IMG/VR virus record: IMGVR_UViG_3300044970_001297
Coordinates: 1 to 64,000 of that record
Direction: 5' to 3' (one strand)
DNA length: 64,000 nucleotides
Source of the DNA: a virus
Below the pieces are notes generated by a model, which did no database searches, had not been told where the DNA came from, and saw nothing but the letters and a program-made list of their open reading frames with translations. The position numbers and the translations under genes are program-made. This document shows positions 27,335 through 44,765 of the stretch, one piece after another (within the stretch, counting starts at the first letter, position 1; the number at the start of each line of letters is the position of its first letter).

Positions 27335-28687
27335 TTAGGACAAGATGTAGTTCAATGTTCCCTGAGACGCATCGATATTCGTGTATGCGGATTTTGTTCC
27401 TATCATCTTGAACGATGCAATATCACCAGGCACTTTGGTGGCAGTAAACTTCAAAGATCCCGATTTTACTGATTTTACATCCAAGTTTATCTGATAGAAG
27501 TTCTTTTCTCCCAGTGCAGTCAACGCAGCATCTATGCTTTTTGGGTCGGCATTGAACTCATTTGCCATATTCTTGCAGAAGAAAACGGTTGTGGATGCGT
27601 CAAGTCTGGCCAAGGCAACCTCATCACCGAGTTCTTTCATCTTCTTCTCCAATGCCGAATAAACAACACGGACATCTGGTGAATACTGAGACATCTTGTC
27701 GTACTTCTTGAACTCTTCGAACACTTTGTATGTGTTGCCTATCTTGGACTTTCCCAAGCCAAGGATGTTTCTTATGCCATATTCGTATATGATCTTCTTC
27801 GCATCTTTTTCAGTTGCACCTATGTTGGTGGCTGCTTCCCATATCTTTTTGATCACGCTTCCGTCTGGTCTGTATTTCTTACTCTTTGTCACGATTGGAT
27901 ACAGGTTTCCAAAGAAACTTGCTGCCGCACCAGTACCCGCTTTCAAGGACAATGGAATCATGTCCCCATCTCTTGTTTCTGCTATGGCATCCGCTCCTTT
28001 GAAGGATTCGGACAAGGGGTAGATCATTCTCTTGACTTTTTTCCCTACAAATGGATTTACTCCAGATATGGCTTGTGCTGTTTTGTTTTCAAGAAGTATT
28101 ATACCAATGCAAACTTCACCAAGATACTTGAACTCTGCTATCTCTCCATCGTCTATGGCACCTATCCATTCAATCTTTGTGTGGTTGTCTCCGTCGAAAT
28201 ATTTTTCTAGAGATTTCTTGAAGTTCTTGTTCTTGTCCAACAACTTGTTCGTTCTGATATAAGCATTGCAAGACTCGGTAAGTTCCGATGTTTTGTTGAA
28301 CACAGCACACGCCACATTCTTATCACCAAAAATGTCGAGTTTGGTGATTGTTGCCTTGCTCAACATGTTGCTGGTCTGCAACTTCAGATCTATTCTGCCA
28401 GTTTTGGATGGCTTTGACATATTCTCTATGGTGCAGAGATATTCTTTGTTTTTGTATTCGACTGGAATCCACGCAACAACCTTTGGTCCCGTCCTACCCC
28501 CTGCGTAGGAGAGATATTCCTTCTCGTTCTTGAGGGATTTCAAGGTCACGGTATCTCCTTCGCGGAGAGATACCGCTGTGTGTTTGCCAACTGGCTTGAG
28601 TGTTGTGGCCTTTTTCAGAACTACAGGAACATCTCCCTTACCCTCAAAGTACTTCTTCCATGTGGCAAGACCCGCTGTACTGGCCAT
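27335..28687 (-). CDS. hypothetical protein, possible PD-(D/E)XK endonuclease
   Basis: K-rich and AT-rich; 'LGEV...ADAI...IPLSLKAG' resembles a restriction-fold D..(E/S)xK motif. Confidence 0.4.
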   Translation of the reverse strand: MASTAGLATWKKYFEGKGDVPVVLKKATTLKPVGKHTAVSLREGDTVTLKSLKNEKEYLSYAGGRTGPKVVAWIPVEYKNKEYLCTIENMSKPSKTGRIDLKLQTSNMLSKATITKLDIFGDKNVACAVFNKTSELTESCNAYIRTNKLLDKNKNFKKSLEKYFDGDNHTKIEWIGAIDDGEIAEFKYLGEVCIGIILLENKTAQAISGVNPFVGKKVKRMIYPLSESFKGADAIAETRDGDMIPLSLKAGTGAAASFFGNLYPIVTKSKKYRPDGSVIKKIWEAATNIGATEKDAKKIIYEYGIRNILGLGKSKIGNTYKVFEEFKKYDKMSQYSPDVRVVYSALEKKMKELGDEVALARLDASTTVFFCKNMANEFNADPKSIDAALTALGEKNFYQINLDVKSVKSGSLKFTATKVPGDIASFKMIGTKSAYTNIDASQGTLNYILS

Positions 28688-28690: not shown

Positions 28691-29158
28691 TTACTTCCTC
28701 TTGCGCGGTGATCTGGTTGATTTTTTCTTCGAAGATGTGTTCTTTATGGTGAGACGAACCTTTTCTGGCACACCGCCACCAGCACGGACAAGCCTCTCGC
28801 CTGTTCCCTTGGCAATCTCTCTGGTTGCCAACTTGCGAATCTGAGACAAAGTACCGACACGCGCATTCACGGGTGTCTTTGCATATGCAAGGCACATCTT
28901 TCCAGCGCAACGAGACATGAACTTGCCGACACGCCCAGCGAAGTCCATTACGCCCTCGCTGAGTTCCTTTGGACCACCGACGATCTCTGCGCTTGGTATG
29001 GTCGCGAGTGCCGTCCTCTTGGCATCTGATTGGTTCAAAGCCTGAATCACGACCTTGCGTGGGCTTCTGCCCTTTTCACCAGGCAACCTGTACCGAACAA
29101 GGTAGTTCTTCTCGTTGCTGTCCTTCTCGTCCTTGCTTGTTTCTTTCTTTTCAGCCAT
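28691..29158 (-). CDS. basic hypothetical protein (probable head-internal protein)
   Basis: Internal 'LSE|G' site followed by a basic module. Confidence 0.5.
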   Translation of the reverse strand: MAEKKETSKDEKDSNEKNYLVRYRLPGEKGRSPRKVVIQALNQSDAKRTALATIPSAEIVGGPKELSEGVMDFAGRVGKFMSRCAGKMCLAYAKTPVNARVGTLSQIRKLATREIAKGTGERLVRAGGGVPEKVRLTIKNTSSKKKSTRSPRKRK

Positions 29159-29163
29159 GTGTC

Positions 29164-29724
29164 TTATCCTAGCATTGGCCTGTCGCCATTGTTGAGTTTT
29201 GATAGGTCGATCTTTTGATTCGTTGCGGGGCGGAAGGAGTTGATTGTAGGCTCCGTCCTCTCTGGCTGTGTCGTGGGCATCCCCTGCATTGGTTGGTTTC
29301 TGAATCTTTCTCTGCCGTTCAGGACACCCTCCAGAACAGAGCCAGCCTTGGGTGTCTTCTGCTGTGGCTTCGAAGCCCTTGGCATTTCATTCACAACCTG
29401 TCTGTGCTGTGGTTCCTCTCGTCGTGCTGGTTCGTGTGTCCGAACTGAGATTGTTTCCTTCGGCACATTGAACTTGCGCTCTATTGATTCTGAAAGTTTC
29501 TTGAAAGTCGTGTTCTCTGGTAGTTTCGATGCGCCAAGACGCTTGATGCCGTCGTTTGATGTAAACTTGTATTTCATGGCTTCAAAGGTTTCCCTATCCT
29601 CAAAGATGTGCAATACAGAAGTGTTGTCTGAATAAAGAGTGAACAATGTATACTTCCCCGATAGATCGGGGTCATTGCTTTCCAAAAGAACGCGAGTGAT
29701 GCTTGATGTTAAAGAATCGGCCAT
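29164..29724 (-). CDS. hypothetical late protein
   Basis: SD GGAGG and CATAAATA promoter; 'LLE', 'LSE', 'VNE' sites. Confidence 0.5.
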   Translation of the reverse strand: MADSLTSSITRVLLESNDPDLSGKYTLFTLYSDNTSVLHIFEDRETFEAMKYKFTSNDGIKRLGASKLPENTTFKKLSESIERKFNVPKETISVRTHEPARREEPQHRQVVNEMPRASKPQQKTPKAGSVLEGVLNGRERFRNQPMQGMPTTQPERTEPTINSFRPATNQKIDLSKLNNGDRPMLG

Positions 29725-29760
29725 CTCAGATGAATCCTCCGATTTATTTATGAAACAACA

Positions 29761-29783
29761 AAGGAGAGGTTTCCCTCTCCTTC
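29761..29783 (-). terminator. intrinsic terminator
   Basis: AAGGAGAGG-TTTC-CCTCTCCTT hairpin after 29812..30765. Confidence 0.55.
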
Positions 29784-29811
29784 GTGTGCATACCACCTTG
29801 TAGCCTAAGGT

Positions 29812-30765
29812 TTATTCGTCGCTGAGAAGAAGTGCGAGTTCGTCTGAAACCTCGCCAGTCTCTGCGAAATCAGCAAGGATCTCTGCAAGACCTTCTTCGC
29901 CATATAGTTCGATTCCCTCTGCGAGGATCGCGTCGAGGATGTCAAAATCCTCTTCCTCTGCAACCTCTTGACGAGTTGCACTGGTTCCTGTGGTTCCATA
30001 GGTTGCGCTGGAGCCAGTTGGACGACCAGAGCCTAGGTTTGTCTTGCGACTCTTTGGAGCCTTTGAGGTTGTAGTACCACCAGAACCAAATGTTCCGCTG
30101 CCCAATGCTCTTGCTAGGTCGTATCCACTCTTCATGCCAGAGAATCTACCTTGATTCCAATACTCAGCACCAGCCTCTGCAACCTCTTGACGAGTTGCAT
30201 TGGTTCCTGTGGTTCCATAGGTTGCACTGGAGCCAGTTGGACGACCAGAGCCTAGGTTTGTCTTGCGACCACCCTTTGGACCCTTTCCAAGGGTGTTGCT
30301 TCCACTGAATGTCTTTCCAGCATTCAATGCCTTTGCTATGTCATATCCACTCTTCATGCCAGAGAACTCACCTGTATTCCATGATGCTTCGTCGAGGATT
30401 GCCAACGCTTCCTCAATGTCGGCTTCTGTGATCGCACCCCTCTTGGCTGCTGTTCCGACAGATGCCTTAGCAGAAGACGATCCCTTGCCACCCTTGACGC
30501 TTGTTCTGTTGGATGAGGCAAAGTTGCCGCGACCACCGCTCTTGGCAGCAGTAGTGAATGCGTTTGGACTTGGCTTTCCACCACCCATCTGAGATGCAAG
30601 CCATTGAGCCAACTGCATGGCATTCATTGCACCACCGATTGATGAATGTCCCCATTGAATTCCAGATGTGCCAGAACCATCTGTTGCGGTTCCTGCTGTT
30701 GATGTGGAAACTGCCTCTTGGACAGATTCGATTAGTGATGCGTAGCCGTCGCGGTTGATTGCCAT
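29812..30765 (-). CDS. probable head-internal polyprotein with a 73-aa tandem duplication and acidic C-terminus
   Basis: G/S/T-rich modules separated by 'VQE|A', 'LDE|A', 'VAE|A'; C-terminal 'EEEDFDILDAILAEG'. Confidence 0.6.
   Translation of the reverse strand: MAINRDGYASLIESVQEAVSTSTAGTATDGSGTSGIQWGHSSIGGAMNAMQLAQWLASQMGGGKPSPNAFTTAAKSGGRGNFASSNRTSVKGGKGSSSAKASVGTAAKRGAITEADIEEALAILDEASWNTGEFSGMKSGYDIAKALNAGKTFSGSNTLGKGPKGGRKTNLGSGRPTGSSATYGTTGTNATRQEVAEAGAEYWNQGRFSGMKSGYDLARALGSGTFGSGGTTTSKAPKSRKTNLGSGRPTGSSATYGTTGTSATRQEVAEEEDFDILDAILAEGIELYGEEGLAEILADFAETGEVSDELALLLSDE
29956..30269. repeat. near-perfect ~95 bp direct repeat (29956-30050 / 30175-30269), period 219 bp
   Basis: ctctgcaacctcttgacgagttgca...cctaggtttgtcttgcgac occurs twice, with 2 visible mismatches. 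Confidence 0.9.
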
Positions 30766-30970
30766 GTTCTTACCTTTCGTAGTTTCGAAACTTTATGAAT
30801 GTGCTGATAGGTTCTAGAATATCAACACTTGTTTGAATATTTAGCATTTCTTGAATTGCAACCCTCAAGGTTCTTCTTTCGGTTCAGACTCTTCACGAAG
30901 ATCTGATGCTTGAGGTCACGGATTCTTGGTCTTGCTGGTGTCTTCACTTTTGCCATGATATAGTCCCCTT

Positions 30971-32182
30971 TTACTTGGTCTTGAGTTTACCAGTTCTCTT
31001 TAGATAGTTATAGAGTGGACGCATACCCTCTTGGTTGTTCTGTCCGAAGTCGCCGCTACGAGCGCGGTTTCTGAAATCACGCATTGCTGCCTGAGCCTCG
31101 CGCTTCTTGGAAATCTGGCTCTTTGTCATCTTTGGCTTCTTGCCCTGCAAGCGATTTGCCATTGCCTCGACCGAACCAGAACCTGTGTCTCTTGCCACTC
31201 CCCTATCGATATTCAGGTTGCGGAATGATGCGATGGCTTTGCTGCGCTGATTGGCAAGGTTTCCTGCCTTCTGAGTGTACTTTCCACTCTTGCCTATGAG
31301 ACTTCCGCCACCCTTGACTGCCTCGGCAGATGCTCCACCCTTCATTGCCATTCTTGCAGCAACCTTGGATTGGAGTTCCGCTGCTGCTCTTGCGACCTTT
31401 GGATTTCCTGTGTCATATGCCTTACCTCTGAGGCGCATCAACTTCTTGTAGCCAGCCTCATCCAACTGCTCGGCTTCAGCAAGACCCTTTGCCTTCATAG
31501 CAGAGTGCTTGAGTGCGGCTCTTCCAAGAACTGCCGATGTTGCTCCACCAAACTTTTCCTTGTCCTTGTAGAACTTCTTCTTGAAGGAACGCTGCATGAA
31601 GTCTGCGACTTCGCCTTTGATGGGCTTCCCTGAAACATTGTGCTTGCGAATGATTCGCATACGCTTTGCACTGACTCCCTCTGCAAGCCCAACATCTTCT
31701 TTGGTTAGAATAGCGGTAGCACGCTTGACTCCGCGCTTTCTATTTTTCATCTTTCGTTCTGCTTCATCTGAAAGGCCCGATCCCACCATCTGGTTGTAAG
31801 CAGACAACTCACCATAATCTTTCATTGACTTGTTGATGTAGGAACCAAGAGTCTTCTTGTTCAACTCGTCCAGTTCTTCAACTTCCTCATTCACACCCAA
31901 CTCCTTCTCCTTCTTGGCAAGGTTCCAGGATCGTGCATACATGACTTCCTTCCACCTCTTGCCGTATTGCTTCTTGAAGGATGCCTTGACCTTGGGATCG
32001 GATGCCCAATCCTCCATGCCAGGTGCTGCCTTCTCTTCGATTGTCTCCTCGCAGATCTGACGAGCCTTCTCTGTGAGGGAGTTGAGGTAGCCCTCTTGGA
32101 GAGCCTTTGCGCGGTCAGCATCCACTGGATCGACCACAGATGCGATTGTCTCGTTGAGTGCCTTGATATCTCTTGTACGCAT
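30971..32182 (-). CDS. probable head-internal polyprotein (basic modules with acidic xxE linkers)
   Basis: Linkers LNE, LQE, IEE, LDE, LAE; 'ELNKKTLGSYINK', 'KKQYGKRWKEVMYARSW' modules. Confidence 0.65.
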   Translation of the reverse strand: MRTRDIKALNETIASVVDPVDADRAKALQEGYLNSLTEKARQICEETIEEKAAPGMEDWASDPKVKASFKKQYGKRWKEVMYARSWNLAKKEKELGVNEEVEELDELNKKTLGSYINKSMKDYGELSAYNQMVGSGLSDEAERKMKNRKRGVKRATAILTKEDVGLAEGVSAKRMRIIRKHNVSGKPIKGEVADFMQRSFKKKFYKDKEKFGGATSAVLGRAALKHSAMKAKGLAEAEQLDEAGYKKLMRLRGKAYDTGNPKVARAAAELQSKVAARMAMKGGASAEAVKGGGSLIGKSGKYTQKAGNLANQRSKAIASFRNLNIDRGVARDTGSGSVEAMANRLQGKKPKMTKSQISKKREAQAAMRDFRNRARSGDFGQNNQEGMRPLYNYLKRTGKLKTK

Positions 32183-32194
32183 TTGTATTTCCTT

Positions 32195-32443
32195 TTAGAA
32201 CTTTCTACCTGTGATCATGTAATCGGTGTTGTCTTGTGGAGTGCCAAGTGTGTTCACGACGCCGCCAACCACGCGCTTCACGGCACGGCCAGCCTTCTTC
32301 AACTTGCGAAGCAACTTCTTTGCATCCTTTTCGTTTGGCTTTCTTACTTCCTGAATGTCCTCGGCGGGAACAAAGATGTTTGTATCCTTTGCCCTGCCCT
32401 GTGGAGTGATGGAGTTGAGGTGTTGTAGGAACTGATTGTTCAT
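32195..32443 (-). CDS. small probable head-internal protein, leader shared with 37397..38737
   Basis: 'MNNQFLQHLNSITPQGRAKDTNIFVPAEDIQE'. Confidence 0.65.
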   Translation of the reverse strand: MNNQFLQHLNSITPQGRAKDTNIFVPAEDIQEVRKPNEKDAKKLLRKLKKAGRAVKRVVGGVVNTLGTPQDNTDYMITGRKF

Positions 32444-32455
32444 GTTGGTTCTTTC

Positions 32456-33670
32456 TTAGTTTCGTGGAGACTTTATGCCTTGATCTCGCTTTCGCATTCC
32501 GCGAGCCATGAAATTCTGTCTTGCAGTCGTGATCTCTGCCTTGTCGTGATAACCGCCTCGCGCATGGATCGCAGGGTAACTTTTGAGTATTTCATTGGAA
32601 GCACCACCACGGCGAAGGGTAGCGACTTTTCTTTTCAAGTCTGCTAGATCGTATTCTGGTCCGTGTCCAAACTTACGATAGGCTTTTCCTACCTTGGAGC
32701 GAGTTGCTTCATTGACTTTACGAGGAGACTTCTTGCCATCCTCCCTGCTTCTCGTTGCCTTTCTTGCAAAGCGATATGTTGCCATTGAAGCATCATGTGG
32801 ATTATATGTTGGATCGCGCGGCTCATTGCGATTGAATCGCCCTTGGGCAGCAGCGGCTTTCTTCATCGTCTCTGCATCGGCACCACCGCGCTGAAGCATA
32901 GCCACCTCCCGCTTGAGTCTTGCCAAGTTCAATGCTTTGCTCTCATCAGAGCCGACCTTGTGCTTGCCATATACCTTGAGATACTTGGAGCGAGTTGCTT
33001 CCTTGAGTTGCTCCTCTGCATCCTTCTTGTTCTGCATCCAGAACTTTGCTTCTTCCTTGTCGCCCTTCTTTACTGCCTTGACGATCTCGCGTTTCGATCC
33101 CTTGATTGCCTTCTTGAGTTCACCCTTTGAGTGGACATAGGAACCCTCATCAAGATCCACATCTTCGAAGATCTTCTTGCCCTTGGCATTTGCCTTATCC
33201 ATGGCACCCTTGCTGAATCTTTCATATGCCTTGTCTGCTGCTGGTGTGGTGGGCTTGTCGGTGAAGAAGCCACGAATTGTCTGCTTTCTTGCTCCACCAC
33301 GACGAAGACGGCTTGCAGACAACTTGGAAAGTTCCTTGTCATATGCATCGGCGGTTTCGCGAGAAGCCTTTCCACTCACATGTGCGCGGCGAAGCCTACG
33401 CATTCTCTTCACGCCTTCAGAGATGGACTCTTCGTTCGTCTCTTCCTGCTTCTTTTCGGCGTTCTTGTCTAAAGGAGCCTTTTTGCCCTTCTTTGCAAGC
33501 CAAGCCTTTCCAGCAGCCATGTTTTCTCTTCTAAGTTGTGCTTCTGTCTTGGAGAAAGGCACTCCTCTACGACGAGCCTCGTTCATCTCAGGATGATCGA
33601 AAAGTGTATCGGTATTCTCGTTGAGTGCCTTGGCGAGATAGAGCCTCTGCTGTAGATTTGGTGAGTTCAT
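32456..33670 (-). CDS. probable head-internal polyprotein with repeated basic 'LxRGGA' modules
   Basis: Modules start after MNE, ISE, LDE, LKE, VNE; two start EATRSK; CATAAATA promoter upstream. Confidence 0.65.
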   Translation of the reverse strand: MNSPNLQQRLYLAKALNENTDTLFDHPEMNEARRRGVPFSKTEAQLRRENMAAGKAWLAKKGKKAPLDKNAEKKQEETNEESISEGVKRMRRLRRAHVSGKASRETADAYDKELSKLSASRLRRGGARKQTIRGFFTDKPTTPAADKAYERFSKGAMDKANAKGKKIFEDVDLDEGSYVHSKGELKKAIKGSKREIVKAVKKGDKEEAKFWMQNKKDAEEQLKEATRSKYLKVYGKHKVGSDESKALNLARLKREVAMLQRGGADAETMKKAAAAQGRFNRNEPRDPTYNPHDASMATYRFARKATRSREDGKKSPRKVNEATRSKVGKAYRKFGHGPEYDLADLKRKVATLRRGGASNEILKSYPAIHARGGYHDKAEITTARQNFMARGMRKRDQGIKSPRN

Positions 33671-33710
33671 GCTTCTTCCTTATTTGCCTATTTTAGAACG
33701 CTTCTATTAT

Positions 33711-35105
33711 TTATGATTTCCGCAAAGGTCGGATGACGAGCCGTGAACCAAGAACCCGCCTATGTTCAGGATCACTTTCTCTGGTCGTGGGTAAAAATGA
33801 TGGAGTTCCCTTGCTCTTTGCGACTTTCGGTTCGTGTGGCAATGTATCGCTTGCCCATATGCGCTTTTCGGGAACATCATGTGCGGGAACTTCCCCCTTC
33901 GCGGTGTGGTGGAAGACTCTACCCTTCATCTTTGGATCCTTGCGGAGCCTGTTCCACACGGATGCGCCACCAGGGCTTTGCAATCCACTGCTCCAAAGGT
34001 TTCCCTTCTTCTTGGCAATGTGCTTGTATGCGAGTGCCGCAAGGGACTTACCGATTTTCTTTCTTGTGTGCAATCCATGAACTTCCGTATGAATGACTTG
34101 ATGCTCGTCTCCATGGGACACCGTGGACACCTCACCCGCGACATGACCAGTCTGATCATGGACGATGTAGTGAGTCTGAACCTTTGGATCGTCCTTGTGT
34201 GTGCTTGTATGGAGTGTGTATCCCTTGGCTACTCTTCCCGATCTCTTCGTGGGATTGCCTGTTCTCTCCACGGTCTTTGCGAAGTTTCTTGCACTGAGCA
34301 ATCCACCTCTCGGCTTTTCAAGGACATTTGCAATCTCAATGTCCTCCCCAATGAAATCAAGGAACGACATGTATCCTTCCTTGACGAGTGCCTTCTTCTT
34401 TGGCTTTGCTACCCGTGCCTGTTGCTTCTGTATCAGGCTAAAGTACTTCGGCTTGTTGATGTGCTTTGGCATGAGTTCATGGGCGAGTTCTGTGTCGCCA
34501 GATGCAACTGCCTTGCGAAGCCTTCCTGCCTTTGCCACGCTCATGTCTCCCTTGCGAAGCCTTGCAAGGACTTCGTGCCTTCGCATATCTCCTTCATGCC
34601 TCTCTGCACCCATCTGATGGAAACTCACCGTTGCCTTGTGAACCTTGCCATCCTTGTCCAATATTCCACCGTACTTCTTCACATGCCCCTCTATTGCGGT
34701 CTTGACACCACCTTTTTTCATCTGATCCGATCCAAGACCGATGGTGATGTGCTTGTGTCCCTGTCTTGCGAGATGCGCCAGTTGATGGAATGGACTCACA
34801 TGTTCCTTTTCGGTTGTGCGAAACTGCATTCCCTTGTGTTCCTTGGCAATGTTCCTGTGACCAGAACGAATGACGGAACGCTTTTGTCCATGCGTCAACG
34901 GATCATCTGCCGATTGCTTCGATGCGGCACCGATGCCATGGTAGAAGTGCGTATGACCCGTCGAGGCAGCATGTGCAGCGGCTTGCCTTGCCATCTCATG
35001 GTGTCCAACGGTGTATGGGCTGTAGGAGCCAGGAAGGAGGAATGCCTTGCCAGATGGCTTGGGCTTGCTTGCTTCATCAATGGGAACTATGTGTATTGTT
35101 TTCAT
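33711..35105 (-). CDS. HIGH-class nucleotidyltransferase-like (cytidyltransferase) domain fused to a GNAT-like domain; probable internal protein
   Basis: 'LLPGSYSPYTVGH', 'GLGSDQ', 'AGRLRKAV..GD'; internal 'MSFLDFIGE'; C-terminal 'YKH...LWSSGLQSPGGASVWNRL'. Confidence 0.55.
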   Translation of the reverse strand: MKTIHIVPIDEASKPKPSGKAFLLPGSYSPYTVGHHEMARQAAAHAASTGHTHFYHGIGAASKQSADDPLTHGQKRSVIRSGHRNIAKEHKGMQFRTTEKEHVSPFHQLAHLARQGHKHITIGLGSDQMKKGGVKTAIEGHVKKYGGILDKDGKVHKATVSFHQMGAERHEGDMRRHEVLARLRKGDMSVAKAGRLRKAVASGDTELAHELMPKHINKPKYFSLIQKQQARVAKPKKKALVKEGYMSFLDFIGEDIEIANVLEKPRGGLLSARNFAKTVERTGNPTKRSGRVAKGYTLHTSTHKDDPKVQTHYIVHDQTGHVAGEVSTVSHGDEHQVIHTEVHGLHTRKKIGKSLAALAYKHIAKKKGNLWSSGLQSPGGASVWNRLRKDPKMKGRVFHHTAKGEVPAHDVPEKRIWASDTLPHEPKVAKSKGTPSFLPTTRESDPEHRRVLGSRLVIRPLRKS

Positions 35106-35125
35106 AATGATATTTAGAAAAAACA

Positions 35126-35150
35126 AGGTGGGGGATCGTGTCCCCCACCT
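35126..35150 (-). terminator. intrinsic terminator
   Basis: AGGTGGGGGA-TCGTG-TCCCCCACCT with a U-run on the minus strand. Confidence 0.7.
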
Positions 35151-35221
35151 GTGCGTCTGACTGGGTTAGTCTTCTTCGTGTTCCGACATATACCACCATT
35201 CGGCAGTATCGAATCCACCTA

Positions 35222-36028
35222 TCAAACCGTCCACGGTTTGATTTCGATTGGTTCCATCTTTGAATGACTTGATCGGTTTGCATTTGACCATGCTTTTGCT
35301 TCCTTGGCAGTCTTGGCAACATGAAGTTCCTTGCTTCTCTGCCAATCATAGACTGTCCAACCTCGTTTGCCTTGCTTTTCAATGGAATGATTTCCCTTCA
35401 CCCATCTGCGATGACCTAGTCCACGGCTATGAATCCACCCATCCTTGGCTTTGCTACCGTATGCTTCTTGAATCTTCTTTCGAACCTTGAATGCGGATGG
35501 TGCTTCATGCGTCGAGGGATCTATGATCGGATCACGGGCATAGTCGCTGTGCTTTCGCGAGTCCTTGGTTCCAAGATCGTCAGACTTGAACTTTCTTCGT
35601 GCGGACTTGCTGAGATTTGCGATTGGGAACTTCACAACATGAATGTTTTCGTAGTCGCGCTCACCAACCTCATGCTTGCGGCGATTGACTGCATGGGCTG
35701 TCTGATCCACCCAATACCCTACGCCATGATGGTTGGTCACGAATGCGTGTCCCTGCGTGTGTTCCTTCTGGCTTGGGTAGTTGGTGCGTCCCTTTGGACT
35801 TCGTGGCTTGAGTCCACCCTTGACGATCTTCGCGGCTCTTGCGGCTGTGGTCGCATGGTAGACATACTTCTGCTTTTCTGAGTTAGGCATCTCATGGAAG
35901 TCATGTGCATACGACCAGTTCTCATTGAGTTCGTTTCCATGTCCATCATGAATGAAGTGCTTTGGATATGCACGGGCAATCATCCTGACTGCCGTTGCCT
36001 CGACTATGAACTCCCTGTAAGTCTTCAT
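35222..36028 (-). CDS. capsid-targeted protein with an ADP-ribosyltransferase-like (Tpt1/ART) domain
   Basis: N-terminal MKTYREFIVE; 'VYHATT......IVKGGLKPR', 'HAFVT'. Confidence 0.55.
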   Translation of the reverse strand: MKTYREFIVEATAVRMIARAYPKHFIHDGHGNELNENWSYAHDFHEMPNSEKQKYVYHATTAARAAKIVKGGLKPRSPKGRTNYPSQKEHTQGHAFVTNHHGVGYWVDQTAHAVNRRKHEVGERDYENIHVVKFPIANLSKSARRKFKSDDLGTKDSRKHSDYARDPIIDPSTHEAPSAFKVRKKIQEAYGSKAKDGWIHSRGLGHRRWVKGNHSIEKQGKRGWTVYDWQRSKELHVAKTAKEAKAWSNANRSSHSKMEPIEIKPWTV

Positions 36029-36031
36029 GTA

Positions 36032-36400
36032 TTATTCCTCGTAGAAGCCTTCGTTGCTTCCGCCATACAACCGAATAAGACGACCAGCGAGTGCATTGGC
36101 TTCGTCCTCGCATGGTGATCCCGTGTCTCCGTCGAGTTCATCACCACATTCATCCTGCATCTGATGGACGAGTTCGTGTGCAATGGAACGGCAGATGTCG
36201 AATGTGGCTCTGTTGCCACTCACAACACGAATGCTCTTGTCTGCTGGACAATACGATGCCGTGGTCATGCCATTCTCACGCACCTGAACCAAACGAACAT
36301 TCGGTGTGTTTGCAAGACCAAGTTCCTGTGCGGCAAAGTCAACGAAGTTTTGAATCGTCTGCTCGTTTGCCTCTGCGATGAAACGATTGAATGACTTCAT
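36032..36400 (-). CDS. capsid-targeted zincin metallopeptidase-like protein
   Basis: N-terminal MKSFNRFIAE; 'RSIAHELVHQMQ...EDEANALAG'. Confidence 0.7.
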   Translation of the reverse strand: MKSFNRFIAEANEQTIQNFVDFAAQELGLANTPNVRLVQVRENGMTTASYCPADKSIRVVSGNRATFDICRSIAHELVHQMQDECGDELDGDTGSPCEDEANALAGRLIRLYGGSNEGFYEE

Positions 36401-37083
36401 TTCTTCTTTGCCTTGAGTATGAGTTGAGTTCCAAATGCCCTGGTTGCCTTGGGCGACGAATAATCGTGCATTCGGATTCCCTTGGATGCTGCCTTGCGTC
36501 TGACTCCCCCACTACCAGAAGTCCATATGTCAGCGGGATTCATCTTGGATGCCTGTCCGATGTCCTTTATGTCTCCATCCCCTTTTCTACTAACGACCGC
36601 ACGGACATGCTTCTTGGTCTTGGGATCCTTCATCAGGTGCTGCCATACTGATGCACCACCCATACTCTGTTGAATGCCGCTATGAATGGTATAGCCGTGC
36701 TTTCCATGAAGATGCTTGTATGCTGCCACGGCAAGCGAATGCCCTATCTTCTTCTTCGAATGATGCGGGTGGATGGCTAGAAATCCTACCCGCAAGTGCT
36801 TACTCGTTTCCGGATTATCACTCACATGATCATTTTCTATGTGTCCAACCACTTTCTTGCTTTTATCGTGGGTTATGAAGAAGTCATTACCATTGTGGTT
36901 TCGATGGATAGAATATTCTTTATGAATCTTACCAAGTTTATGCATACGAAGCGAAGGAAGGCTTCGCGCGGCTTCAATATCCGAATGGAACTCATCATGA
37001 ATACCTTTCCAGTCTTTGCGGTTTAATCTACTAATATTTGGTTCTAGTTGTATGTCCTCAAGTAGTTGGCGATAGGTCTTCAT
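36397..37083 (-). CDS. capsid-targeted GNAT-like protein
   Basis: MKTYRQLLE; 'HSKKKIGHSLAVAAYKHL...SGIQQSMGGASVWQHL'; paralogous to the C-terminus of 33711..35105. Confidence 0.55.
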   Translation of the reverse strand: MKTYRQLLEDIQLEPNISRLNRKDWKGIHDEFHSDIEAARSLPSLRMHKLGKIHKEYSIHRNHNGNDFFITHDKSKKVVGHIENDHVSDNPETSKHLRVGFLAIHPHHSKKKIGHSLAVAAYKHLHGKHGYTIHSGIQQSMGGASVWQHLMKDPKTKKHVRAVVSRKGDGDIKDIGQASKMNPADIWTSGSGGVRRKAASKGIRMHDYSSPKATRAFGTQLILKAKKK

Positions 37084-37394
37084 TTATTTCCCTTTGCCAT
37101 GTGGTGTGCAGTATGCATATATGCATTATGAATGGCATCATTCATCGTCTTATGAGTTCCATGTATGGTATTTAGACCAATGTCCTTACCATTCACACGA
37201 ATGTTCCCTGCCTGATATCCCCAACCACCCATGCGACTCCATCCCTTGACCACATGACCGACGATGCCACGATGCGAGAACATGGATGTGGTGTCATTGA
37301 TCTTGCGAATGTTCGCACCATGACCAGATTGCTTGATCTTCACATATCTTTCATTGGAAGATGCTTCAGTGAGAAACTGACTGAATGACTTCAT
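37080..37394 (-). CDS. small capsid-targeted internal protein
   Basis: N-terminal MKSFSQFLTE|A. Confidence 0.65.
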   Translation of the reverse strand: MKSFSQFLTEASSNERYVKIKQSGHGANIRKINDTTSMFSHRGIVGHVVKGWSRMGGWGYQAGNIRVNGKDIGLNTIHGTHKTMNDAIHNAYMHTAHHMAKGNK

Positions 37395-37396
37395 GT

Positions 37397-38737
37397 TCAA
37401 TCGTCCTCGTAATCGTCCTTCTCGTTCTTGTGTTCCTTCTCAATGTCACGAAGGACATTCTTTGGAACTGCCATGCCAATCCTCTTGTGGCGACGGGCAA
37501 CCAAACGGGCAATCATGCTCTTGGTCGATTCTCTCTTTTCCTCTTCCTTTTCCTCTTCTTCGGATATCGAATTTGGAGTATTGGAAAGGTAGTCTTTCAC
37601 CGAAGAAATGTAATCTGCTGATTTCGTGATCTTGGACTGAACCCATCCCTCAAGTTGGGAATCAGACTTGAGCATCGACATGATGTCGTTGGCATTTGCA
37701 ATGATGGACTTGAGTTCACCCATTGCCATTCCACCCTCATCATCGACTTCCTTCTGCTCATGAAGATTGCCGTGGTATGTGTGGAAAGACATCTGAATGG
37801 CATTGGAACCTTCCGCATGTGAACCCATCAGTTTAGGAACATTATGCTTTTGAAGAATACCCTGAATGCTTTGATGAAGTTTCGCTGAATTCTTCGCCCC
37901 GATTCCCCCGATTCCCTTAGCATGTCCACCAGTACGGGCAAGTATCTTGCCGTGCTTTGCCTTGAGTTCACGGATTGCACCCTTTGGAAGATCATACAAC
38001 CAATCTTCCATGGATGCCTTCACTGCACCTTCATATACTGGTATTGGATTCTTCCTACCCTTACCGACGAACTTCTTCAACCCATCAGCATCTCGCTTGT
38101 GCTTGTTGCTATAGGTGAGCATGAGAAGTTCAGGAACTGCGGGAATGGCATACTGTGCATACTTGGGGGCTTCCGTCATTGGAAACAAACGCCCAGTCTT
38201 GCCAGCGCGTGATGCGGCACGGGAACGCATTCCAACCTCGCGATAGTACCTTTGTCTGCCCTCTGGACTCAAGCCACGAAGTCTCTTCTGTAGTTTGCCA
38301 GAGAAACTCTTGATCTCACCCTTGGTGTACTTGTCGTATGGATCCTGTCCTGGTGGAAGTATGGGCTTTGCTCTCCCCGAACGACCACGATTTGGATCAT
38401 TGGTCGAGACTGCTTCCTTGAGTGGAATGCCTGTCCTTGCGGAGAAGTCTCCAAGTGCGCGGTCGAGTTTCTTTCCATACCGCTTGGCATTGCTGCTCAT
38501 CTTCTTGCCCCAACGCTCCCTTGCGGCTTCATAGTCCTTGAGGCTTCCGCTACCCTCTCTCCAGTTGCGGGATGCATGTGCAAGTTTTCTTGCTGCCTTC
38601 CTTGGCATCCCCTTGAGGTTCTGTCCGACATCGGGAACGGCTTCGCTGATGTCCTTCGCGGGAACAAAGATGGATGTATCCTTGGCTCTACCCTGAGGTG
38701 TGATTGAGTTTAGGTGGTTTAGGAATTGGTTGCTCAT
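37397..38737 (-). CDS. probable head-internal polyprotein
   Basis: Leader MSNQFLNHLNSITPQGRAKDTSIFVPAKDISE|A; linkers LKE, MTE, VYE, LHE; conserved 'EGGMAMGEL...LEGWVQSKITKSADYISSVKDYL' module. Confidence 0.65.
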   Translation of the reverse strand: MSNQFLNHLNSITPQGRAKDTSIFVPAKDISEAVPDVGQNLKGMPRKAARKLAHASRNWREGSGSLKDYEAARERWGKKMSSNAKRYGKKLDRALGDFSARTGIPLKEAVSTNDPNRGRSGRAKPILPPGQDPYDKYTKGEIKSFSGKLQKRLRGLSPEGRQRYYREVGMRSRAASRAGKTGRLFPMTEAPKYAQYAIPAVPELLMLTYSNKHKRDADGLKKFVGKGRKNPIPVYEGAVKASMEDWLYDLPKGAIRELKAKHGKILARTGGHAKGIGGIGAKNSAKLHQSIQGILQKHNVPKLMGSHAEGSNAIQMSFHTYHGNLHEQKEVDDEGGMAMGELKSIIANANDIMSMLKSDSQLEGWVQSKITKSADYISSVKDYLSNTPNSISEEEEKEEEKRESTKSMIARLVARRHKRIGMAVPKNVLRDIEKEHKNEKDDYEDD

Positions 38738-38741
38738 GTCT

Positions 38742-39323
38742 CTATGCCTTTGCTGTTGTTTTCCTTGGGTGCAAGTACAGGTGGTGCTTGTATCCTGTCC
38801 TTCGACCATATGCCAGTTTCTCATGCTGTTCGGGATCGTATTGCTGCATCTTGGGCTTCTTGCCCCATTGCTCCTCTGCAAACTTCACCCTCTTCTTTGC
38901 CGCGAGTTGCCGCCAGATGTGGCGACCACCCTTTGTCTGTGCGTCATCGCTTCTTATCGTGTGTCCCGTCTTGTCTGCCAACATCATGTATGTCTTTGCC
39001 ATCAGCCCTCGCACCAATGCCTTCTTTCCCCTGTGGCTTGGATGCAAGGAAGGACCACGCGGGATGATTTGCTTCTTGTGCTTGTTGTATGGAACATGAC
39101 CAACCGATTCGCCATTGTGCATGATGTGGACTATTCCATAACCACTCTTGGCCCCTCGGTGTCGTATCTCGTATGGACCGACCTTGCCCATGCGCTTGGT
39201 TCCATGAGCAGACTCTGGATAATGCTTAGAATCCCCGTAGTCAAGGACGGGTTCTTCGTTCAATAGACCAAGTTCACGAAGTGCTGCCTCTGCCAAGATC
39301 TTTCGTGCTTCTGTGTATCTCAT
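38742..39323 (-). CDS. GNAT-like probable internal protein
   Basis: Leader MRYTEARKILAEAALRELGLLNE; 'LHPSHRGK...TIRSDDAQTKGGRHIWRQL'. Confidence 0.6.
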   Translation of the reverse strand: MRYTEARKILAEAALRELGLLNEEPVLDYGDSKHYPESAHGTKRMGKVGPYEIRHRGAKSGYGIVHIMHNGESVGHVPYNKHKKQIIPRGPSLHPSHRGKKALVRGLMAKTYMMLADKTGHTIRSDDAQTKGGRHIWRQLAAKKRVKFAEEQWGKKPKMQQYDPEQHEKLAYGRRTGYKHHLYLHPRKTTAKA

Positions 39324-39701
39324 TGTCCTAGTTCCCTTAAAGTGTTGAAAGTGAAAGTTCCATTTGATGTTCCCACCAAATGGAACGGTGAGTTTCTTCT
39401 TTTCTTAGTTCTTTGGTTTGAGAACCCTTTTCGTCTCTTGACCAGCAACATTGATGTTCCTGTATGCCACACCCTTTCGCAACTTCACCTTCTTGCCACC
39501 CTTGCCAATGAGGTTGGGTGATGCTCGCTCCCTATCGTCTCGCATCAATTCGCGATCAGCGTTCTGACGCCTTGCAAATGCGGTGTTGATTGCCCTGCGG
39601 TTCTCTAAATCTCGTCCTGGTGTGGTATAGTCTTCATCCAATAGACCAAGTTCAAGAAGTGCTGCCTCTGCCAAGATCTGTCGTGCTTCTGAGTATCTCA
39701 T
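39261..39701. repeat. 63 bp direct repeat encoding a shared leader (39261-39323 / 39639-39701)
   Basis: 3 mismatches by eye; covers exactly the first 21 codons of two otherwise unrelated genes. Confidence 0.9.
39405..39701 (-). CDS. small basic probable internal protein
   Basis: Leader MRYSEARQILAEAALLELGLLDE. Confidence 0.6.
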   Translation of the reverse strand: MRYSEARQILAEAALLELGLLDEDYTTPGRDLENRRAINTAFARRQNADRELMRDDRERASPNLIGKGGKKVKLRKGVAYRNINVAGQETKRVLKPKN

Positions 39702-39796: not shown

Positions 39797-40087
39797 TCAG
39801 CCATTACCCCATACGGTGCCACGACGAGATGCGGCTTGGTCGAGGTTCTCTCTGAATCGTTTGGGAACGCCCTTGGAGACCTTCTTCATGACCTCTTTGA
39901 AATCTGCACCGGGGGTCAGGTTCATATCCACTGCTGCTGCGGGTGATCCGATCCAATCCCTTTGAATGGATTCAGAGACACCACAATGGGGACATGGATG
40001 GGAGCATGGGGTATCACGATTCGAAATGGATTGGAAAAGTTCGAATGAGTGATCGCAACGGGAACATCGGTAGTCATAGGTTGGCAT
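39797..40087 (-). CDS. FmdB-family zinc-ribbon regulatory protein
   Basis: 'MPTYDYRCSRCDHSFE.....CPHCG'. Confidence 0.85.
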   Translation of the reverse strand: MPTYDYRCSRCDHSFELFQSISNRDTPCSHPCPHCGVSESIQRDWIGSPAAAVDMNLTPGADFKEVMKKVSKGVPKRFRENLDQAASRRGTVWGNG

Positions 40088-40113
40088 GATGAAAAAATCC
40101 TCCTGTCAGGTAT

Positions 40114-40569
40114 CTATTTCGATTCCTGACGGAGGTATGCGATGTATGCACGGGATCTTTTACGAATGGCAGAATGATTGACGGGTAGGTGCCACTCTCG
40201 TATGAGTCTGAGGGAATCCCGTTCGGTGTGTTCCTCTAGGGTGACATAGGATTCCCCTTCGATGGATTCGCCGTCATGGAGTTTCTTCCAAATCGAATCC
40301 CCGTTCTTCCATTGAAGGAAATGGCAATACTCATGTATGAGATTCGTCAGAACATTGATGGGTTTTCTATTACCCGTTCCTACTCTGATGATGCCCCATT
40401 GGGATCCTCTCGGTTCTTCGAAGTACCCCGCTGCGGAGTGTACATTGTTGAACCTGACGGATCTACCCTTGGAGAACTTGAGATGCACTCTATGAGTTTG
40501 GAGGTCGTGACGAATGAACTTTAGGAAGTTCTTCGCTTCGGGGCTTGAGTTGCTGAGTGTACGAATCAT
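40114..40569 (-). CDS. zincin-like HEXXH protein
   Basis: 'LIHEYCHFLQW...LEEHTE'. Confidence 0.6.
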   Translation of the reverse strand: MIRTLSNSSPEAKNFLKFIRHDLQTHRVHLKFSKGRSVRFNNVHSAAGYFEEPRGSQWGIIRVGTGNRKPINVLTNLIHEYCHFLQWKNGDSIWKKLHDGESIEGESYVTLEEHTERDSLRLIREWHLPVNHSAIRKRSRAYIAYLRQESK

Positions 40570-40602
40570 GGCGTATTCCTCATCTCATTTCCCCTCCTAG
40601 TT

Positions 40603-40920
40603 CTATCTAGGAATCTTTGCCCATTCCTCTTCGTACTTCCATCCATCCGAAAGGAAGAGTCGCCACATCACCCTTGCCTGTTCCAGATTCCATCTGGTGC
40701 TTAGACCAGTGGTCACCATGCGGTTTCCTAGAAGTCGGACTTGCTTCGGCCCATCGTATGAATAGCCATCTTCGTACTTCGTATACGCGGCCATCATGAT
40801 GAGAGGGGTTTCGTAATCCTTGTTTTCGATGATCAGGAAGAGCAGCCCCTGATCCCCCTTGGTGAGCCAGTGGGATTCGATTGCCTGTTCGTCTTCGGTG
40901 AGGTGGGTTGCGATGGTCAT
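40603..40920 (-). CDS. hypothetical protein
   Basis: SD GGAGG plus the shared ACAATG motif. Confidence 0.55.
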   Translation of the reverse strand: MTIATHLTEDEQAIESHWLTKGDQGLLFLIIENKDYETPLIMMAAYTKYEDGYSYDGPKQVRLLGNRMVTTGLSTRWNLEQARVMWRLFLSDGWKYEEEWAKIPR

Positions 40921-40940
40921 TGTGGGTTTCCTCCTTTGGT

Positions 40941-43436
40941 TCAGGCGACGATGTCCATGAGGCGGTTGATGAACATGCGGTTCGTCTCGTCGCGCTTCAT
41001 GGCAGCGATGAAGGCACGGGTCGCAGCGACCTTCCTGTTCTTCAACTTCTCAAACTTCGCATCCTCGTTCTTCGCGATCTCCTCGGCGCGACGGCGATCC
41101 TGCACCTGGACGAAGAAGTAGGAAGCGTATCCCGAATTCGGGTTGTTGATCGCGACGAACTTCTCGGCATCGAACTTCTCACGGAGGACCTTCGTCTTCT
41201 CCAAGCGGGTGGTGTAATCGTCCTTGTCGGCAGTCGCGAGACGATCAAAGGTCGAGCAGTACGAGAGGCTCTGCATCATCATGATGCCGACCACATCGCA
41301 TCCCGTGGCATCCTTGAACATGTTGACCACCGCGGTGTTGCCGTGACCCGTATGACGGCGACCGTTGGCGGCATCGATCATCACCTTGGAGACATGGCGG
41401 TAGTGACCACCGGTGTTCTTGCTCTTGCTGAGATCCTCAGGAGTGTTGACGCGGTTGATGACGCTCATGCCTTCGCCATCGGTGAGGGTGATGAAGGTCA
41501 CCTTGGTGTTGCTGGACTTTCGGAAGTTGTTGACGATGTCACGCATGGCAAGGATCGACTCGTCAAGCGGGGTCGTGCCAAGCATCAGCGAGTCAACGCA
41601 CTCGACCTGAGAGTAGCGACCGCTGACCATCTTGGCGAGGAGCGAGAGGCGACCCATCACCCGCGCGAACTTCTTGTTGTCCATGTTCTGGTTGTAGACC
41701 TGAACAAGGCTGAACGCCTCAAAGGTTGCCGTGTATCCCTTCGCAACGGTGCCAGCGGGGAGGTTGCAGACATGCTCGGTGAAGAGGCGACGCTCGTCAA
41801 GCGCACACCAATTCACGCGGGACGATCCACCGTAGCGAAGCGCGTCGGCGCGGGTCGGCTTCTTGCCGTCCTGATCCGCAGGGAAATGCTTGTTGTTCTT
41901 CGCGAAGAGGTCATCCGCGAACTTGCTGTACATGCTGTTGAAGAAGTAGACCTCGGCAGGGATTCCGACGCGACGGCAGAACATCAGGAGAGCCGCGAGT
42001 TGGCTCACGGTGTCGTTGAGCATGACGCTCATCGAACCCGACCAGTCGAGGAGGATCACGATGCCGTGGTTCTTCTCGTCGCGCTTGATGGTCATGCGCT
42101 CAAAGATGTCCTCGCTGAACTTGTACTTGGCAAGGTTGCGGCAGGAGATGCGACCCGTCTTCGCGCTCGACTCGCGAGCGTAGTTGCGAGCCGCACGACG
42201 CACTTCGAAGCGACGGCACATCTGGTCGACCGCACGACGGTTCTCCGCGACGAGTTCCTTGAAGGCTTCCGCTGCCGCCTTGTCGAGGTGTTCCGACACG
42301 CTGCCCGTGATCTTGTGGTACTTCGACGGAACGCTCTGGTTCATCAGGTCGATGAACTCGTCGCTGCTCACGACGATCTTCGAAGTGTCGATCTGCGGGA
42401 CGCGGATGGCGTGTTCGACAACCTGGTTGTTGACGAACTTCTTCATGGCCTTCTCCATCTCGCCAACGGTCGAAGCCGCATCGGGAGCGTACTGCTGCGC
42501 CTCGACCTCTTCCTTGCCGCCATCGGTCTCGTCTGAGGCTTCGGCAGTCGAGCCATCGTCCTGAGCCGATTCGTCGCCGTCGTTGCCACTGGACGAATCC
42601 TCGCGCTCGCCGTTGCCCTGCTCGTCGCTACGCTCGCTCTTGTCCTCGGCACCCGCTTCGCGAGTCTCGGACGAATCGGTCTTGTCGTTGCCGTCCTCGC
42701 GGGAAGCAGCACCTTCGCGCTTCTCCTCGCCGTTGTCGCCGTCCTGCTCGGACGAAGCCGAACCGCTCTGCTGCTTGCCGTCGCTCTTGGTCTGGTTGGT
42801 GCGGCTTCCCTCGCCCTGCTCCTCCTCGCGCTCGCGCTTCTGGTTCTTCGCGAACTCGTAGACCTCGGCAGCGATGGCGGTGACATCATCGAAGGTACGC
42901 GCCGCGTTGATCGCGTCCACGAACTTCATCTCCTCCGCGCTGAAGGGAACCTGAACGCCAAGGTGGATGCCCATCTTGAAGTGGATGTTCAGGCGGTCGA
43001 TGGTCGAGAGGGAAGCGAGGTCGCGACCCTTGAGGTTGAAGGCATCCATGGTGCTGAGGGCCTGGTAGCCGTTGATGAAGTCGCGGCGAAGACCAGGAAA
43101 CTCGCGCTTGATCATGCGCTCAATGCGAGCGTCTTCGATCACATTGATGTAGTCCTTCGCGACCATGGCATTCTTGGTGCCGCCGATGCGGATGCTGGCT
43201 TCCTTCCACGCATCGGCAGGAGTGTACTTGGCATGGCCGACCTCATGGCCGACAAGGAAGTCATAGACGCTCTGGTCCTTGTTGTCCCACTGCGGCAGAA
43301 CAAGCCGACGCGAGTCGAGTTCGAAGTAGGCAGTCTCGCACTCATGCGAGTGTTCGACGGTGAGGTTCTCCGACGCGAGCAGACGCGCCATGATGGAATT
43401 GCGAGCGGTGTTTGCGGTGTTCATGGTAGTAGCCAT
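40941..43436 (-). CDS. CobT-like protein: N-terminal HEXXH metallopeptidase, acidic linker and VWA domain
   Basis: 'LLASENLTVEH', 'GHEVGHAKYTP', 'NVIEDARIER', MIDAS 'LLDWSGSM', 'GTTPL', 'LTDGE'. Confidence 0.85.
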   Translation of the reverse strand: MATTMNTANTARNSIMARLLASENLTVEHSHECETAYFELDSRRLVLPQWDNKDQSVYDFLVGHEVGHAKYTPADAWKEASIRIGGTKNAMVAKDYINVIEDARIERMIKREFPGLRRDFINGYQALSTMDAFNLKGRDLASLSTIDRLNIHFKMGIHLGVQVPFSAEEMKFVDAINAARTFDDVTAIAAEVYEFAKNQKREREEEQGEGSRTNQTKSDGKQQSGSASSEQDGDNGEEKREGAASREDGNDKTDSSETREAGAEDKSERSDEQGNGEREDSSSGNDGDESAQDDGSTAEASDETDGGKEEVEAQQYAPDAASTVGEMEKAMKKFVNNQVVEHAIRVPQIDTSKIVVSSDEFIDLMNQSVPSKYHKITGSVSEHLDKAAAEAFKELVAENRRAVDQMCRRFEVRRAARNYARESSAKTGRISCRNLAKYKFSEDIFERMTIKRDEKNHGIVILLDWSGSMSVMLNDTVSQLAALLMFCRRVGIPAEVYFFNSMYSKFADDLFAKNNKHFPADQDGKKPTRADALRYGGSSRVNWCALDERRLFTEHVCNLPAGTVAKGYTATFEAFSLVQVYNQNMDNKKFARVMGRLSLLAKMVSGRYSQVECVDSLMLGTTPLDESILAMRDIVNNFRKSSNTKVTFITLTDGEGMSVINRVNTPEDLSKSKNTGGHYRHVSKVMIDAANGRRHTGHGNTAVVNMFKDATGCDVVGIMMMQSLSYCSTFDRLATADKDDYTTRLEKTKVLREKFDAEKFVAINNPNSGYASYFFVQVQDRRRAEEIAKNEDAKFEKLKNRKVAATRAFIAAMKRDETNRMFINRLMDIVA

Positions 43437-43444
43437 ATGCTGTA

Positions 43445-44754: not shown

Positions 44755-44765
44755 GTTGCAGATAT

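Follow-up and report, generated by a model that had tools for sequence, protein, structure and literature searches.

Why would a series of phage proteins of quite different kinds begin with nearly the same ten residues? The question is raised by the first 64 kb (the window) of the IMG/VR record IMGVR_UViG_3300044970_001297, a 92.8-kb record, about 53% complete, of an uncultured T4-like myovirus with baseplate and tail genes at 62-92 kb. Within the window lies a block of 15 tightly packed minus-strand open reading frames (ORFs) that runs from 39701 down to 28691 (~11 kb). A preliminary description of the sequence suggested that unrelated proteins of this block start with variants of one short leader, and are packaged in the capsid, released by a protease and injected into the host. 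We have followed up this suggestion, and we consider it likely that the leader is a packaging and cleavage propeptide of the T4 type, and that the block is an enlarged internal-protein locus, the products of which travel in the virion and reach the host together with the phage DNA.

A T4-type leader on unrelated proteins

Five ORFs open with the pattern M-K-[ST]-[YF]-x-x-[FL]-[IL]-x-E, four of which are neighbours within the block while the fifth lies at 54.5 kb. The leaders quoted in the preliminary description are all found at the ATG of a real minus-strand ORF, at 36028, 36400, 37083, 37394 and 55002. The leader is followed by alanine except in the copy at 37083 (g228), which is one residue shorter and is followed by aspartate. 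A scan of the genome for the motif had also been suggested, and in six frames of the whole 92.8-kb record this gives four strict matches and one loose match, with none beyond the five ORF starts. Codon-block shuffles give 0.01 (strict) and 0.09 (loose) matches. The DNA form of the motif has four matches in the record, compared with none for a reversed-pattern control. The conserved residues are encoded by differing codons across the five genes, and therefore selection or conservation operates at the level of the peptide, not the DNA.

The capsid targeting sequence (CTS) of T4 is MKTYQEFIAE (PMC8442874), in which mutagenesis has assigned residues 4 and 7 to targeting and residues 8 and 10 to processing (PMC9026906 section 2.6). 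The functional positions are retained in the leaders found here, with hydrophobic or aromatic residues at 4 and 7, isoleucine or leucine at 8 and glutamate at 10, and in one relative (L002) the leader departs from that of T4 by only one swapped Glu/Gln pair. As a positive control, the DNA form of the motif recovers ipII and ipIII of T4, with the reversed pattern giving 0 or 1 match.

Only these five genes bear the T4-type leader proper. The remaining genes of the block, with the exception of g155, bear leaders of other classes that likewise end in [IL]-x-E, so that the system contains at least three leader classes in total. The core of the earlier proposal thus holds, and its notion of one short leader common to the block was too simple. 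Class B leaders (g98 and g193) start with M-R-Y and follow the pattern M-R-Y-x-E-A-R-x-I-L-x-E before alanine, with the L-A-E ending at residue 12; this leader also heads two to three different proteins in the relatives L002 and L003. Class C leaders (g446 and g82) comprise 32 residues and end in I-x-E, while in each of g464, g404, g403, g317 and g186 an individual leader runs up to an [IL]-x-E. Every leader class retains the cut-site residues. The tripeptide lies within residues 6-20 in 10 of 13 block ORFs, compared with 13 of 87 elsewhere (Fisher p 1.2e-5), and in the enzyme cargos such sites are confined to the leader and to domain junctions. The same N-terminal [IL]-x-E is seen in ipII, ipIII, Alt, gp22, gp24, gp67 and gp68 when these are translated from the T4 record, and all of these are proteins processed by the T4 protease gp21.

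The block is syntenic in three IMG/VR relatives (L001-L003). In the shared order, genes for the CobT-like protein, for a leaderless HExxH protein and for a zinc-ribbon protein are succeeded by genes with class B leaders, one with a class C leader and those with the CTS, and then by the gene of the cytidylyltransferase fusion and those of the basic proteins. The 156.6-kb record behind L002 (G001) encodes a Peptidase_S77 prohead protease of the gp21 type (E 3e-39), together with a portal protein and gp23.

Behind the leader, the cargo is shuffled. Nearly all of 39 metagenomic homologs of g268 begin with the leader and the modules downstream are rearranged, with an extra His-rich domain inserted, with the C-terminal module directly after the leader, or with the domain resembling ADP-ribosyltransferases (ARTs) alone. 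Two sequences (P0016 and P0019) are in-frame fusions in which a g268-like protein precedes a g122-like HExxH protein, the two being joined by a leader-like peptide that ends in [IL]-x-E. The inter-domain junction of g464 is similarly a leader-like peptide, ending in I-G-E, and in P0077 that peptide forms the N-terminus of a free-standing protein. In all g464 homologs an N-terminal [IL]xE followed by alanine stands immediately ahead of the Rossmann strand. The long basic proteins are mosaics. Segments of g446 match different proteins among the relatives, and g404 segments 83-169, 167-226 and 225-342 match three different proteins there, with [IL]xE sites at the breaks (83, 167 and 222). Overall, 12 of 40 homology breakpoints in the long basic proteins lie no more than five residues from an [IL]-x-E, compared with 4.5 expected (p about 0.001 in a crude test). 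Since module junctions are further [IL]-x-E sites, some with a whole leader-like peptide, one precursor probably gives several products.

Leaders of this kind are also found in cultured phages for which virion proteins have been identified. The virion proteome of cyanophage S-CREM2 contains six 'non-structural' proteins, including SAM (S-adenosylmethionine) hydrolase ORF6, kinase ORF14, Cas9-like nuclease ORF12 and cytidylyltransferase ORF154, as well as small hypothetical proteins such as ORF13 (PMC10665884). On translation, S-CREM2 ORF6, ORF13, ORF14 and ORF154 all open with a CTS-like leader, that of ORF14 from a GTG start, and the homology of ORF6 (gp6) to g177 (E 1.6e-13) spans the full protein. 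Across the whole S-CREM2 genome a relaxed DNA pattern matches at exactly three places, where ORF6, ORF13 and ORF154 begin. The product of each is in the virion proteome, which comprises 52 of 221 annotated features (chance p about 0.012). The cyanophage core cytidylyltransferase T4-GC190 has been detected in virions of S-SM1 (Sullivan et al. 2010, PMC3037559), and its orthologs in Syn19, S-RIM2, P-SSM3, S-MbCM6 and P-TIM68 all open with a CTS-like leader. Homologs of g177 in P-TIM68 and in Paraglaciecola virus GD1 likewise bear the leader. A full-text literature search that combined 'capsid targeting sequence' with 'cyanophage' brought up a T4 review and nothing else, so that within the searchable open literature the leader does not seem to have been connected with cyanophage virions.

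Two of these phages provide further detail. In Prochlorococcus phage P-TIM68 (L008 2983-3498) the SAM-lyase-like gene seems to have been annotated from a start six codons too early, with a CTS-like leader running from the seventh codon; ATAAATA lies directly upstream, leader position 10 is aspartate, and an I-Q-E follows three residues on. In Paraglaciecola Antarctic GD virus 1 (L007), a cultured T4-like phage of a heterotroph host, four genes match the strict leader pattern, including the g177 homolog gp48 and gp46, two positions upstream of gp48.

Because of the identity to the T4 CTS at functional positions, the Peptidase_S77 in a syntenic relative, the shuffled cargo behind a constant leader and the published virion proteome, the view of the leader as a predicted T4-type targeting and cleavage propeptide on unrelated cargo is well supported, if indirectly.

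Candidate cargo and organization of the block

The preliminary description had assigned three acetyltransferase-like proteins, an ADP-ribosyltransferase-like protein, a metallopeptidase and a nucleotidyltransferase-like protein to the cargo, and these assignments have fared unequally. A profile match places g177 in the S-adenosylmethionine lyase family PF23780 (S-AdoMet_lyase; E 4e-14, with 53.1 bits for a cut-off of 28). Sequence searches of the PDB with g177 and g122 gave no useful match.

The acetyltransferase-like assignments have stood. The score of g228 against Pfam Acetyltransf_1 (19.7 bits) is below the 20.7 cut-off, and two relatives score 34.8 (P0061) and 29.1 bits (P0077). The AlphaFold2 (AF2) model of g228 has a pLDDT (predicted local distance difference test) of 65.6, and every PDB match listed by Foldseek for it is an acetyltransferase, in nearly all cases from the GNAT family (best EctA, E 6e-4). 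The C-terminal half of g464 resembles g228 (E 9e-20), and g228, this half of g464 and g193 are paralogs. Profile and model comparisons thus support three GNAT-like domains.

The N-terminal half of g464 matches PHROG 395 'cytidyltransferase' (phrog_395, E 4.8e-8). Its match to Pfam PF01467 (E 0.046) is under the cut-off, and a T-V-G-H motif is present, so that the nucleotidyltransferase or cytidylyltransferase-like call is made at the PHROG level only. We considered whether g464 might be a T4-GC190 ortholog, and rejected this on a weak profile comparison with the Kyanoviridae proteins; we place it instead in the same superfamily.

For g268, the AF2 model (pLDDT 70.6) gave no Foldseek match at E <= 0.001, the best having E 0.045. 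Nearly all VIA matches to residues 53-185 belong to the ART clan, with Z values of 4-6.1 (KptA 6.1, Arr 5.1 and DarT 4.7; also Tpt1, diphtheria toxin and PARP), and His58 and His100 are conserved among homologs. With such low VIA scores the ART-like fold is a weak assignment, a lead rather than proof.

In g122 the HExxH motif is followed by acidic residues. The match to Peptidase_M78 (E 0.009) is below the cut-off and M78 is annotated on 14% of members of the nearest Atlas cluster, so that the protein is called a putative zincin by motif only. It is a paralog of the leaderless HExxH protein g151 (40114-40569, minus strand), which adjoins an FmdB-like zinc-ribbon protein (39797-40087, minus strand, phrog_385); this pair is kept in 3/3 relatives, immediately upstream of the block.

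Most block proteins have no match in Pfam or PHROGs, and no fold could be assigned to g104, g98, g82, g403, g404, g446, g317, g186 or g155. The g104 ortholog in L002 and L003 is 79% identical, and g104 is found in Atlas viral orphan clusters only. Cysteine is absent from almost all block proteins. An internal duplication of ~75 residues in g317, rich in Gly, Ser and Thr, is seen at the protein level only; Tandem Repeats Finder detected no repeats in the DNA of the block.

Genes of the block, the g177 gene and transcription signals. Positions are those of the window; leaders are given by their last residues and the residue that follows.
Feature	Position	Strand	Evidence or remark
g98, 98-aa basic protein, class B leader	39405-39701	-	first 24 aa 79% identical to g193, then divergent
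g193, class B leader and GNAT-like paralog	38742-39323	-	similar to g228, E 7e-7; L-A-E then Ala at residues 10-13
g446, basic modular protein, 32-aa class C leader ending I-S-E, then Ala	37397-38737	-	N-terminus common to g82 (E 1.5e-15) and relatives
g104, T4-type CTS leader, small His-rich basic protein	37080-37394	-	sole [IL]xE site is in the leader
g228, CTS-like leader (L-L-E, then Asp), GNAT-fold domain	36397-37083	-	profile and structure comparison
g122, T4-type CTS leader, acidic HExxH protein (putative zincin)	36032-36400	-	HExxH in translation
g268, T4-type CTS leader, ART-fold-like domain (~53-185), I-Q-E junction (then Ala), small beta-rich C-terminal module	35222-36028	-	homologs, AF2 model
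g464, leader I-D-E (then Ala), cytidylyltransferase-like domain, leader-like linker I-G-E (then Asp; residues ~245-255), GNAT-like domain	33711-35105	-	
g404, basic (24% K+R) modular protein, leader L-N-E, then Asn	32456-33670	-	mosaic matches to relatives
g82, class C leader, short basic peptide	32195-32443	-	I-Q-E at residues 30-32
g403, basic modular protein, leader L-N-E, then Thr	30971-32182	-	mosaic matches to relatives
Small 44-aa very basic ORF between g317 and g403	30822-30956	-	38-aa ortholog in L002 and L003
g317, Gly/Ser-rich, leader L-I-E (then Ser), acidic tail	29812-30765	-	orthologs in L001-L003
g186, leader L-L-E, then Ser	29164-29724	-	77% identical to L002 ortholog
g155, basic (pI 10.5), lacks N-terminal cleavage motif; membership of the system uncertain	28691-29158	-	
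g177, T4-type CTS leader, SAM lyase family protein, outside the block	54469-55002	-	PF23780
T4 late-promoter consensus, perfect 8 bases, ~23 nt upstream of g177	55026-55033	-	
ATAAATA late-promoter-like motif upstream of g404	33708-33714	-	
ATAAATA motif upstream of g186	29745-29751	-	
Terminator-like hairpin between g268 and g464 (10-bp stem, 7 GC pairs, T run)	35126-35150	-	
Terminator-like hairpin upstream of g186	29758-29785	-	

A perfect match to the T4 late-promoter consensus is present upstream of g177, the leader-bearing gene outside the block. Sigma-70-like sites are depleted (3 compared with 13 expected). We rejected the possibility that the block is a single operon, given the two internal terminator-like hairpins and the internal promoter-like motifs.

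Directly downstream of the block lies g450 (27335-28687, minus strand), which has neither a leader nor a family match. Its position is a variable slot, occupied by other, unrelated genes in L001 and in L002/L003. Since it is leaderless and is swapped for unrelated genes in the relatives, we rejected g450 as a member of the system.

Elsewhere in the window there are ten tRNA genes at 53430-59040 on the minus strand (Arg, Leu, Lys, Glu, Thr, Tyr, Gln, Ser, Gly and Ile), six of which are tightly clustered at 58018-58493. The G+C fraction is 0.52-0.58 at 40000-52000, compared with 0.41-0.50 elsewhere in the window. Long ORFs occur on both strands at 40000-52000, and gene calls there therefore need caution.

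The CobT-like 'peptidase' at 40941-43436 has only ~28% identity to its counterparts in Synechococcus phages and cyanophages. A megablast search of the 33-40 kb region against cultured phages gave no match, nor did tblastn with g464, and therefore the lineage is one that lacks a close cultured relative. A locus search for relatives with g228 as the query found none.

Proposed packaging and alternative explanations

The likely role of the leader can be set out as a sequence of steps, by analogy with T4. The block would be an enlarged internal-protein locus of a T4-like myovirus, in which each precursor is made late with a short N-terminal propeptide. The propeptide would dock the precursor to the scaffolding core of the prohead via the aromatic or hydrophobic residues 4 and 7, and the shell would then enclose it. 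A prohead protease of the gp21 type would cut off the leader after the glutamate of [IL]-x-E, and would also cut the internal [IL]-x-E linkers. The mature, very basic products would remain beside the DNA inside the head and accompany it into the next host. The cargo might thus include a SAM lyase, three GNAT-fold domains, a cytidylyltransferase-like and an ART-fold-like protein, an HExxH protein and the long proteins rich in lysine and arginine. A SAM lyase behind a perfect late promoter fits with packaging, because an enzyme of the anti-restriction type would be useful only at the very start of infection. That the proteins of this phage are docked, cleaved and injected is our inference, as is any biological role.

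A number of observations weigh against this scheme. There is no head module, and so no protease or capsid gene, on the 92.8-kb fragment, and the lineage is known from sequence alone, with no isolate. The last gene of the block, g155, has no leader of any kind. The leader pattern also matches T4 gp61.1 and one further T4 site, neither of which is a known internal protein, and the pattern is therefore not perfectly specific. The S-CREM2 proteome reports presence in purified particles, not location in the head, cleavage or injection. Finally, ATAAATA is not enriched genome-wide (15 copies compared with 14.7 expected), and only two copies lie within the block, most genes of which have none. We therefore make a claim for the placement of the motif and none for promoter enrichment. 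Late timing of the block, as first proposed, is thus only partly supported by the sequence, in that two ATAAATA motifs are well placed and sigma-70-like sites are depleted.

T4 gp61.1 (NC_000866 18966-19130) is itself a 54-residue hypothetical protein in an early-gene region. It has a near-perfect CTS-like leader in which I-K-E is followed by aspartate; either the motif gives a false positive here or a packaged peptide has been overlooked.

An alternative is that most of the block, above all g403, g404, g446 and g317, encodes components of the scaffolding core, which would be cut up and for the most part expelled, or would persist as small internal peptides, so that just a few enzyme genes are true cargo. 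The long proteins have several [IL]xE sites each (in g403 nine compared with 3.1 expected), no recognisable enzyme domain and a low-complexity, repeat-like composition, and the N-termini of T4 gp22 and gp67 are of the same kind. However, the head module of G001 already contains an acidic scaffold of its own that resembles gp22, as well as a gp67-like gene, and the block is distant from head genes, in a variable region. Moreover, in being strongly basic the block proteins resemble the internal proteins of T4 and differ from its scaffold proteins. The median isoelectric point (pI) is 10.1 in the block compared with 6.3 in the rest of the record, and 77% of block ORFs have a pI >9.5 compared with 18% outside; the acidic exceptions are g122 and g317. 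We therefore regard a scaffolding role for most of the block as unlikely.

It might also be that the proteins become associated with virions by another route, such as binding to the tail or baseplate or co-purification, and that the leader serves only as a protease-removable, inhibitory propeptide that prevents toxic enzymes from acting before assembly. Virion proteomes are blind to location, and the ART-like, SAM lyase and HExxH cargos could damage the producing cell. However, in T4 this peptide suffices to target foreign proteins to the head (PMC9026906), and the gp21-type protease works inside the prohead, and we think this explanation improbable. Least plausible of all is that the shared N-termini are remnants of duplication or recombination, or of translation-start selection, in a hyperplastic region and have no capsid-targeting role, for while leaders B and C are common to adjacent or nearby paralog-like genes and the block is a mosaic, the conserved residues are in differing codons, the same peptide is found on unrelated proteins in T4, in Kyanoviridae and in a Paraglaciecola phage, the leader predicts virion presence in S-CREM2, and the cut-site residues are kept in every leader class.

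Thus the T4-type propeptide is the explanation that we prefer. If the leader acts as it does in T4, the set of proteins delivered with the DNA of a T4-like phage could be read from the genome alone, including those of uncultured phages and of marine and freshwater cyanophages. This would explain the recurrent SAM hydrolase, cytidylyltransferase and kinase in cyanophage virion proteomes, and would point to pre-packaged counter-defence, for example a SAM lyase present as the DNA enters. The natural leaders and cleavable linkers might also be used for loading foreign proteins into phage heads. More tentatively, the T4 targeting code may be readable across the T4 superfamily including the cyanophages, and may here have grown into recombining cassettes of tagged multi-module precursors that release separate injected effectors. 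We think this a possibility, somewhat less probable than not; if it is true, a packaged arsenal would be predictable from sequence and could be quickly rebuilt by module shuffling.

Relation to known internal-protein systems

The principle of leader plus cargo, and the existence of variable internal-protein loci, are already established in the T-even phages (PMC3012670; PMC9026906). What appear to be new are the lineage, the extent of the array (11 kb), the presence of enzymes among the cargo, the use of several leader classes, the leader-like linkers within precursors and the link to cyanophage virion proteomes.

The T4 internal proteins IPII and IPIII (and IPI) carry the capsid targeting sequence, according to later reviews of the original work (Mullaney & Black 1996, as reviewed in PMC9026906, PMC3012670). 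The leaders described here resemble those of IPII and IPIII in having ten residues, with the same residues at positions 1-2, 4, 7, 8 and 10 and then alanine, and the systems also share small and basic mature parts, the [IL]-x-E cut site and a gp21-type protease in the lineage, encoded by G001. They differ in that the cargo lacks sequence similarity to IPI-III and includes several enzymes or multi-module precursors, and in the presence of at least three leader classes. Moreover, the array of 15 genes extends over 11 kb compared with about 1 kb for ipII-ipIII, so that it is indeed much larger than the T4 locus, as had been proposed, and the lineage is distant from the T-evens, with a CobT-like protein that is ~28% identical to those of cyanophages. 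Polymorphic loci of T-even phages encode unrelated internal proteins that share the targeting leader only, as cited in the reviews (Repoila et al. 1994, cited in PMC3012670, PMC9026906). These too are variable loci with the same logic of leader plus cargo. However, they belong to close enterobacterial relatives of T4 and encode small non-enzymatic proteins, whereas here modules are shuffled within proteins and leader-like peptides are kept as internal linkers.

An enzyme predicted to be packaged has its counterpart in T4 as well. The T4 ADP-ribosyltransferase Alt is loaded into the head, where gp21 cuts it behind an [IL]-x-E near the N-terminus, and is then injected. Similarly, g268 has a weakly assigned ART-like fold behind an [IL]-x-E leader; unlike a true Alt homolog it has no sequence similarity to Alt, and its nearest folds are KptA/Tpt1, Arr and DarT at low Z.

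In the phiKZ-like giant phages (201phi2-1, phiKZ and SPN3US), many head ejection or inner-body proteins are cut after glutamate by a gp21-like protease (PMC9026906 section 3.2; PMC5694885). The likeness lies in cleavage after glutamate at a short motif, in several sites per propeptide and in a large load of packaged protein. The motif of those phages is however S/A-x-E with no T4-type CTS, and they are a different phage group with unrelated proteins.

With the virion proteins of S-CREM2 (PMC10665884) and S-SM1 (PMC3037559) the system described here shares the SAM lyase family, the cytidylyltransferase superfamily and CTS-like leaders. The cytidylyltransferase-like domain of the block is only distantly related to theirs and is fused to a GNAT domain. 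The two papers give virion presence only, apparently without linking the proteins to a targeting leader.

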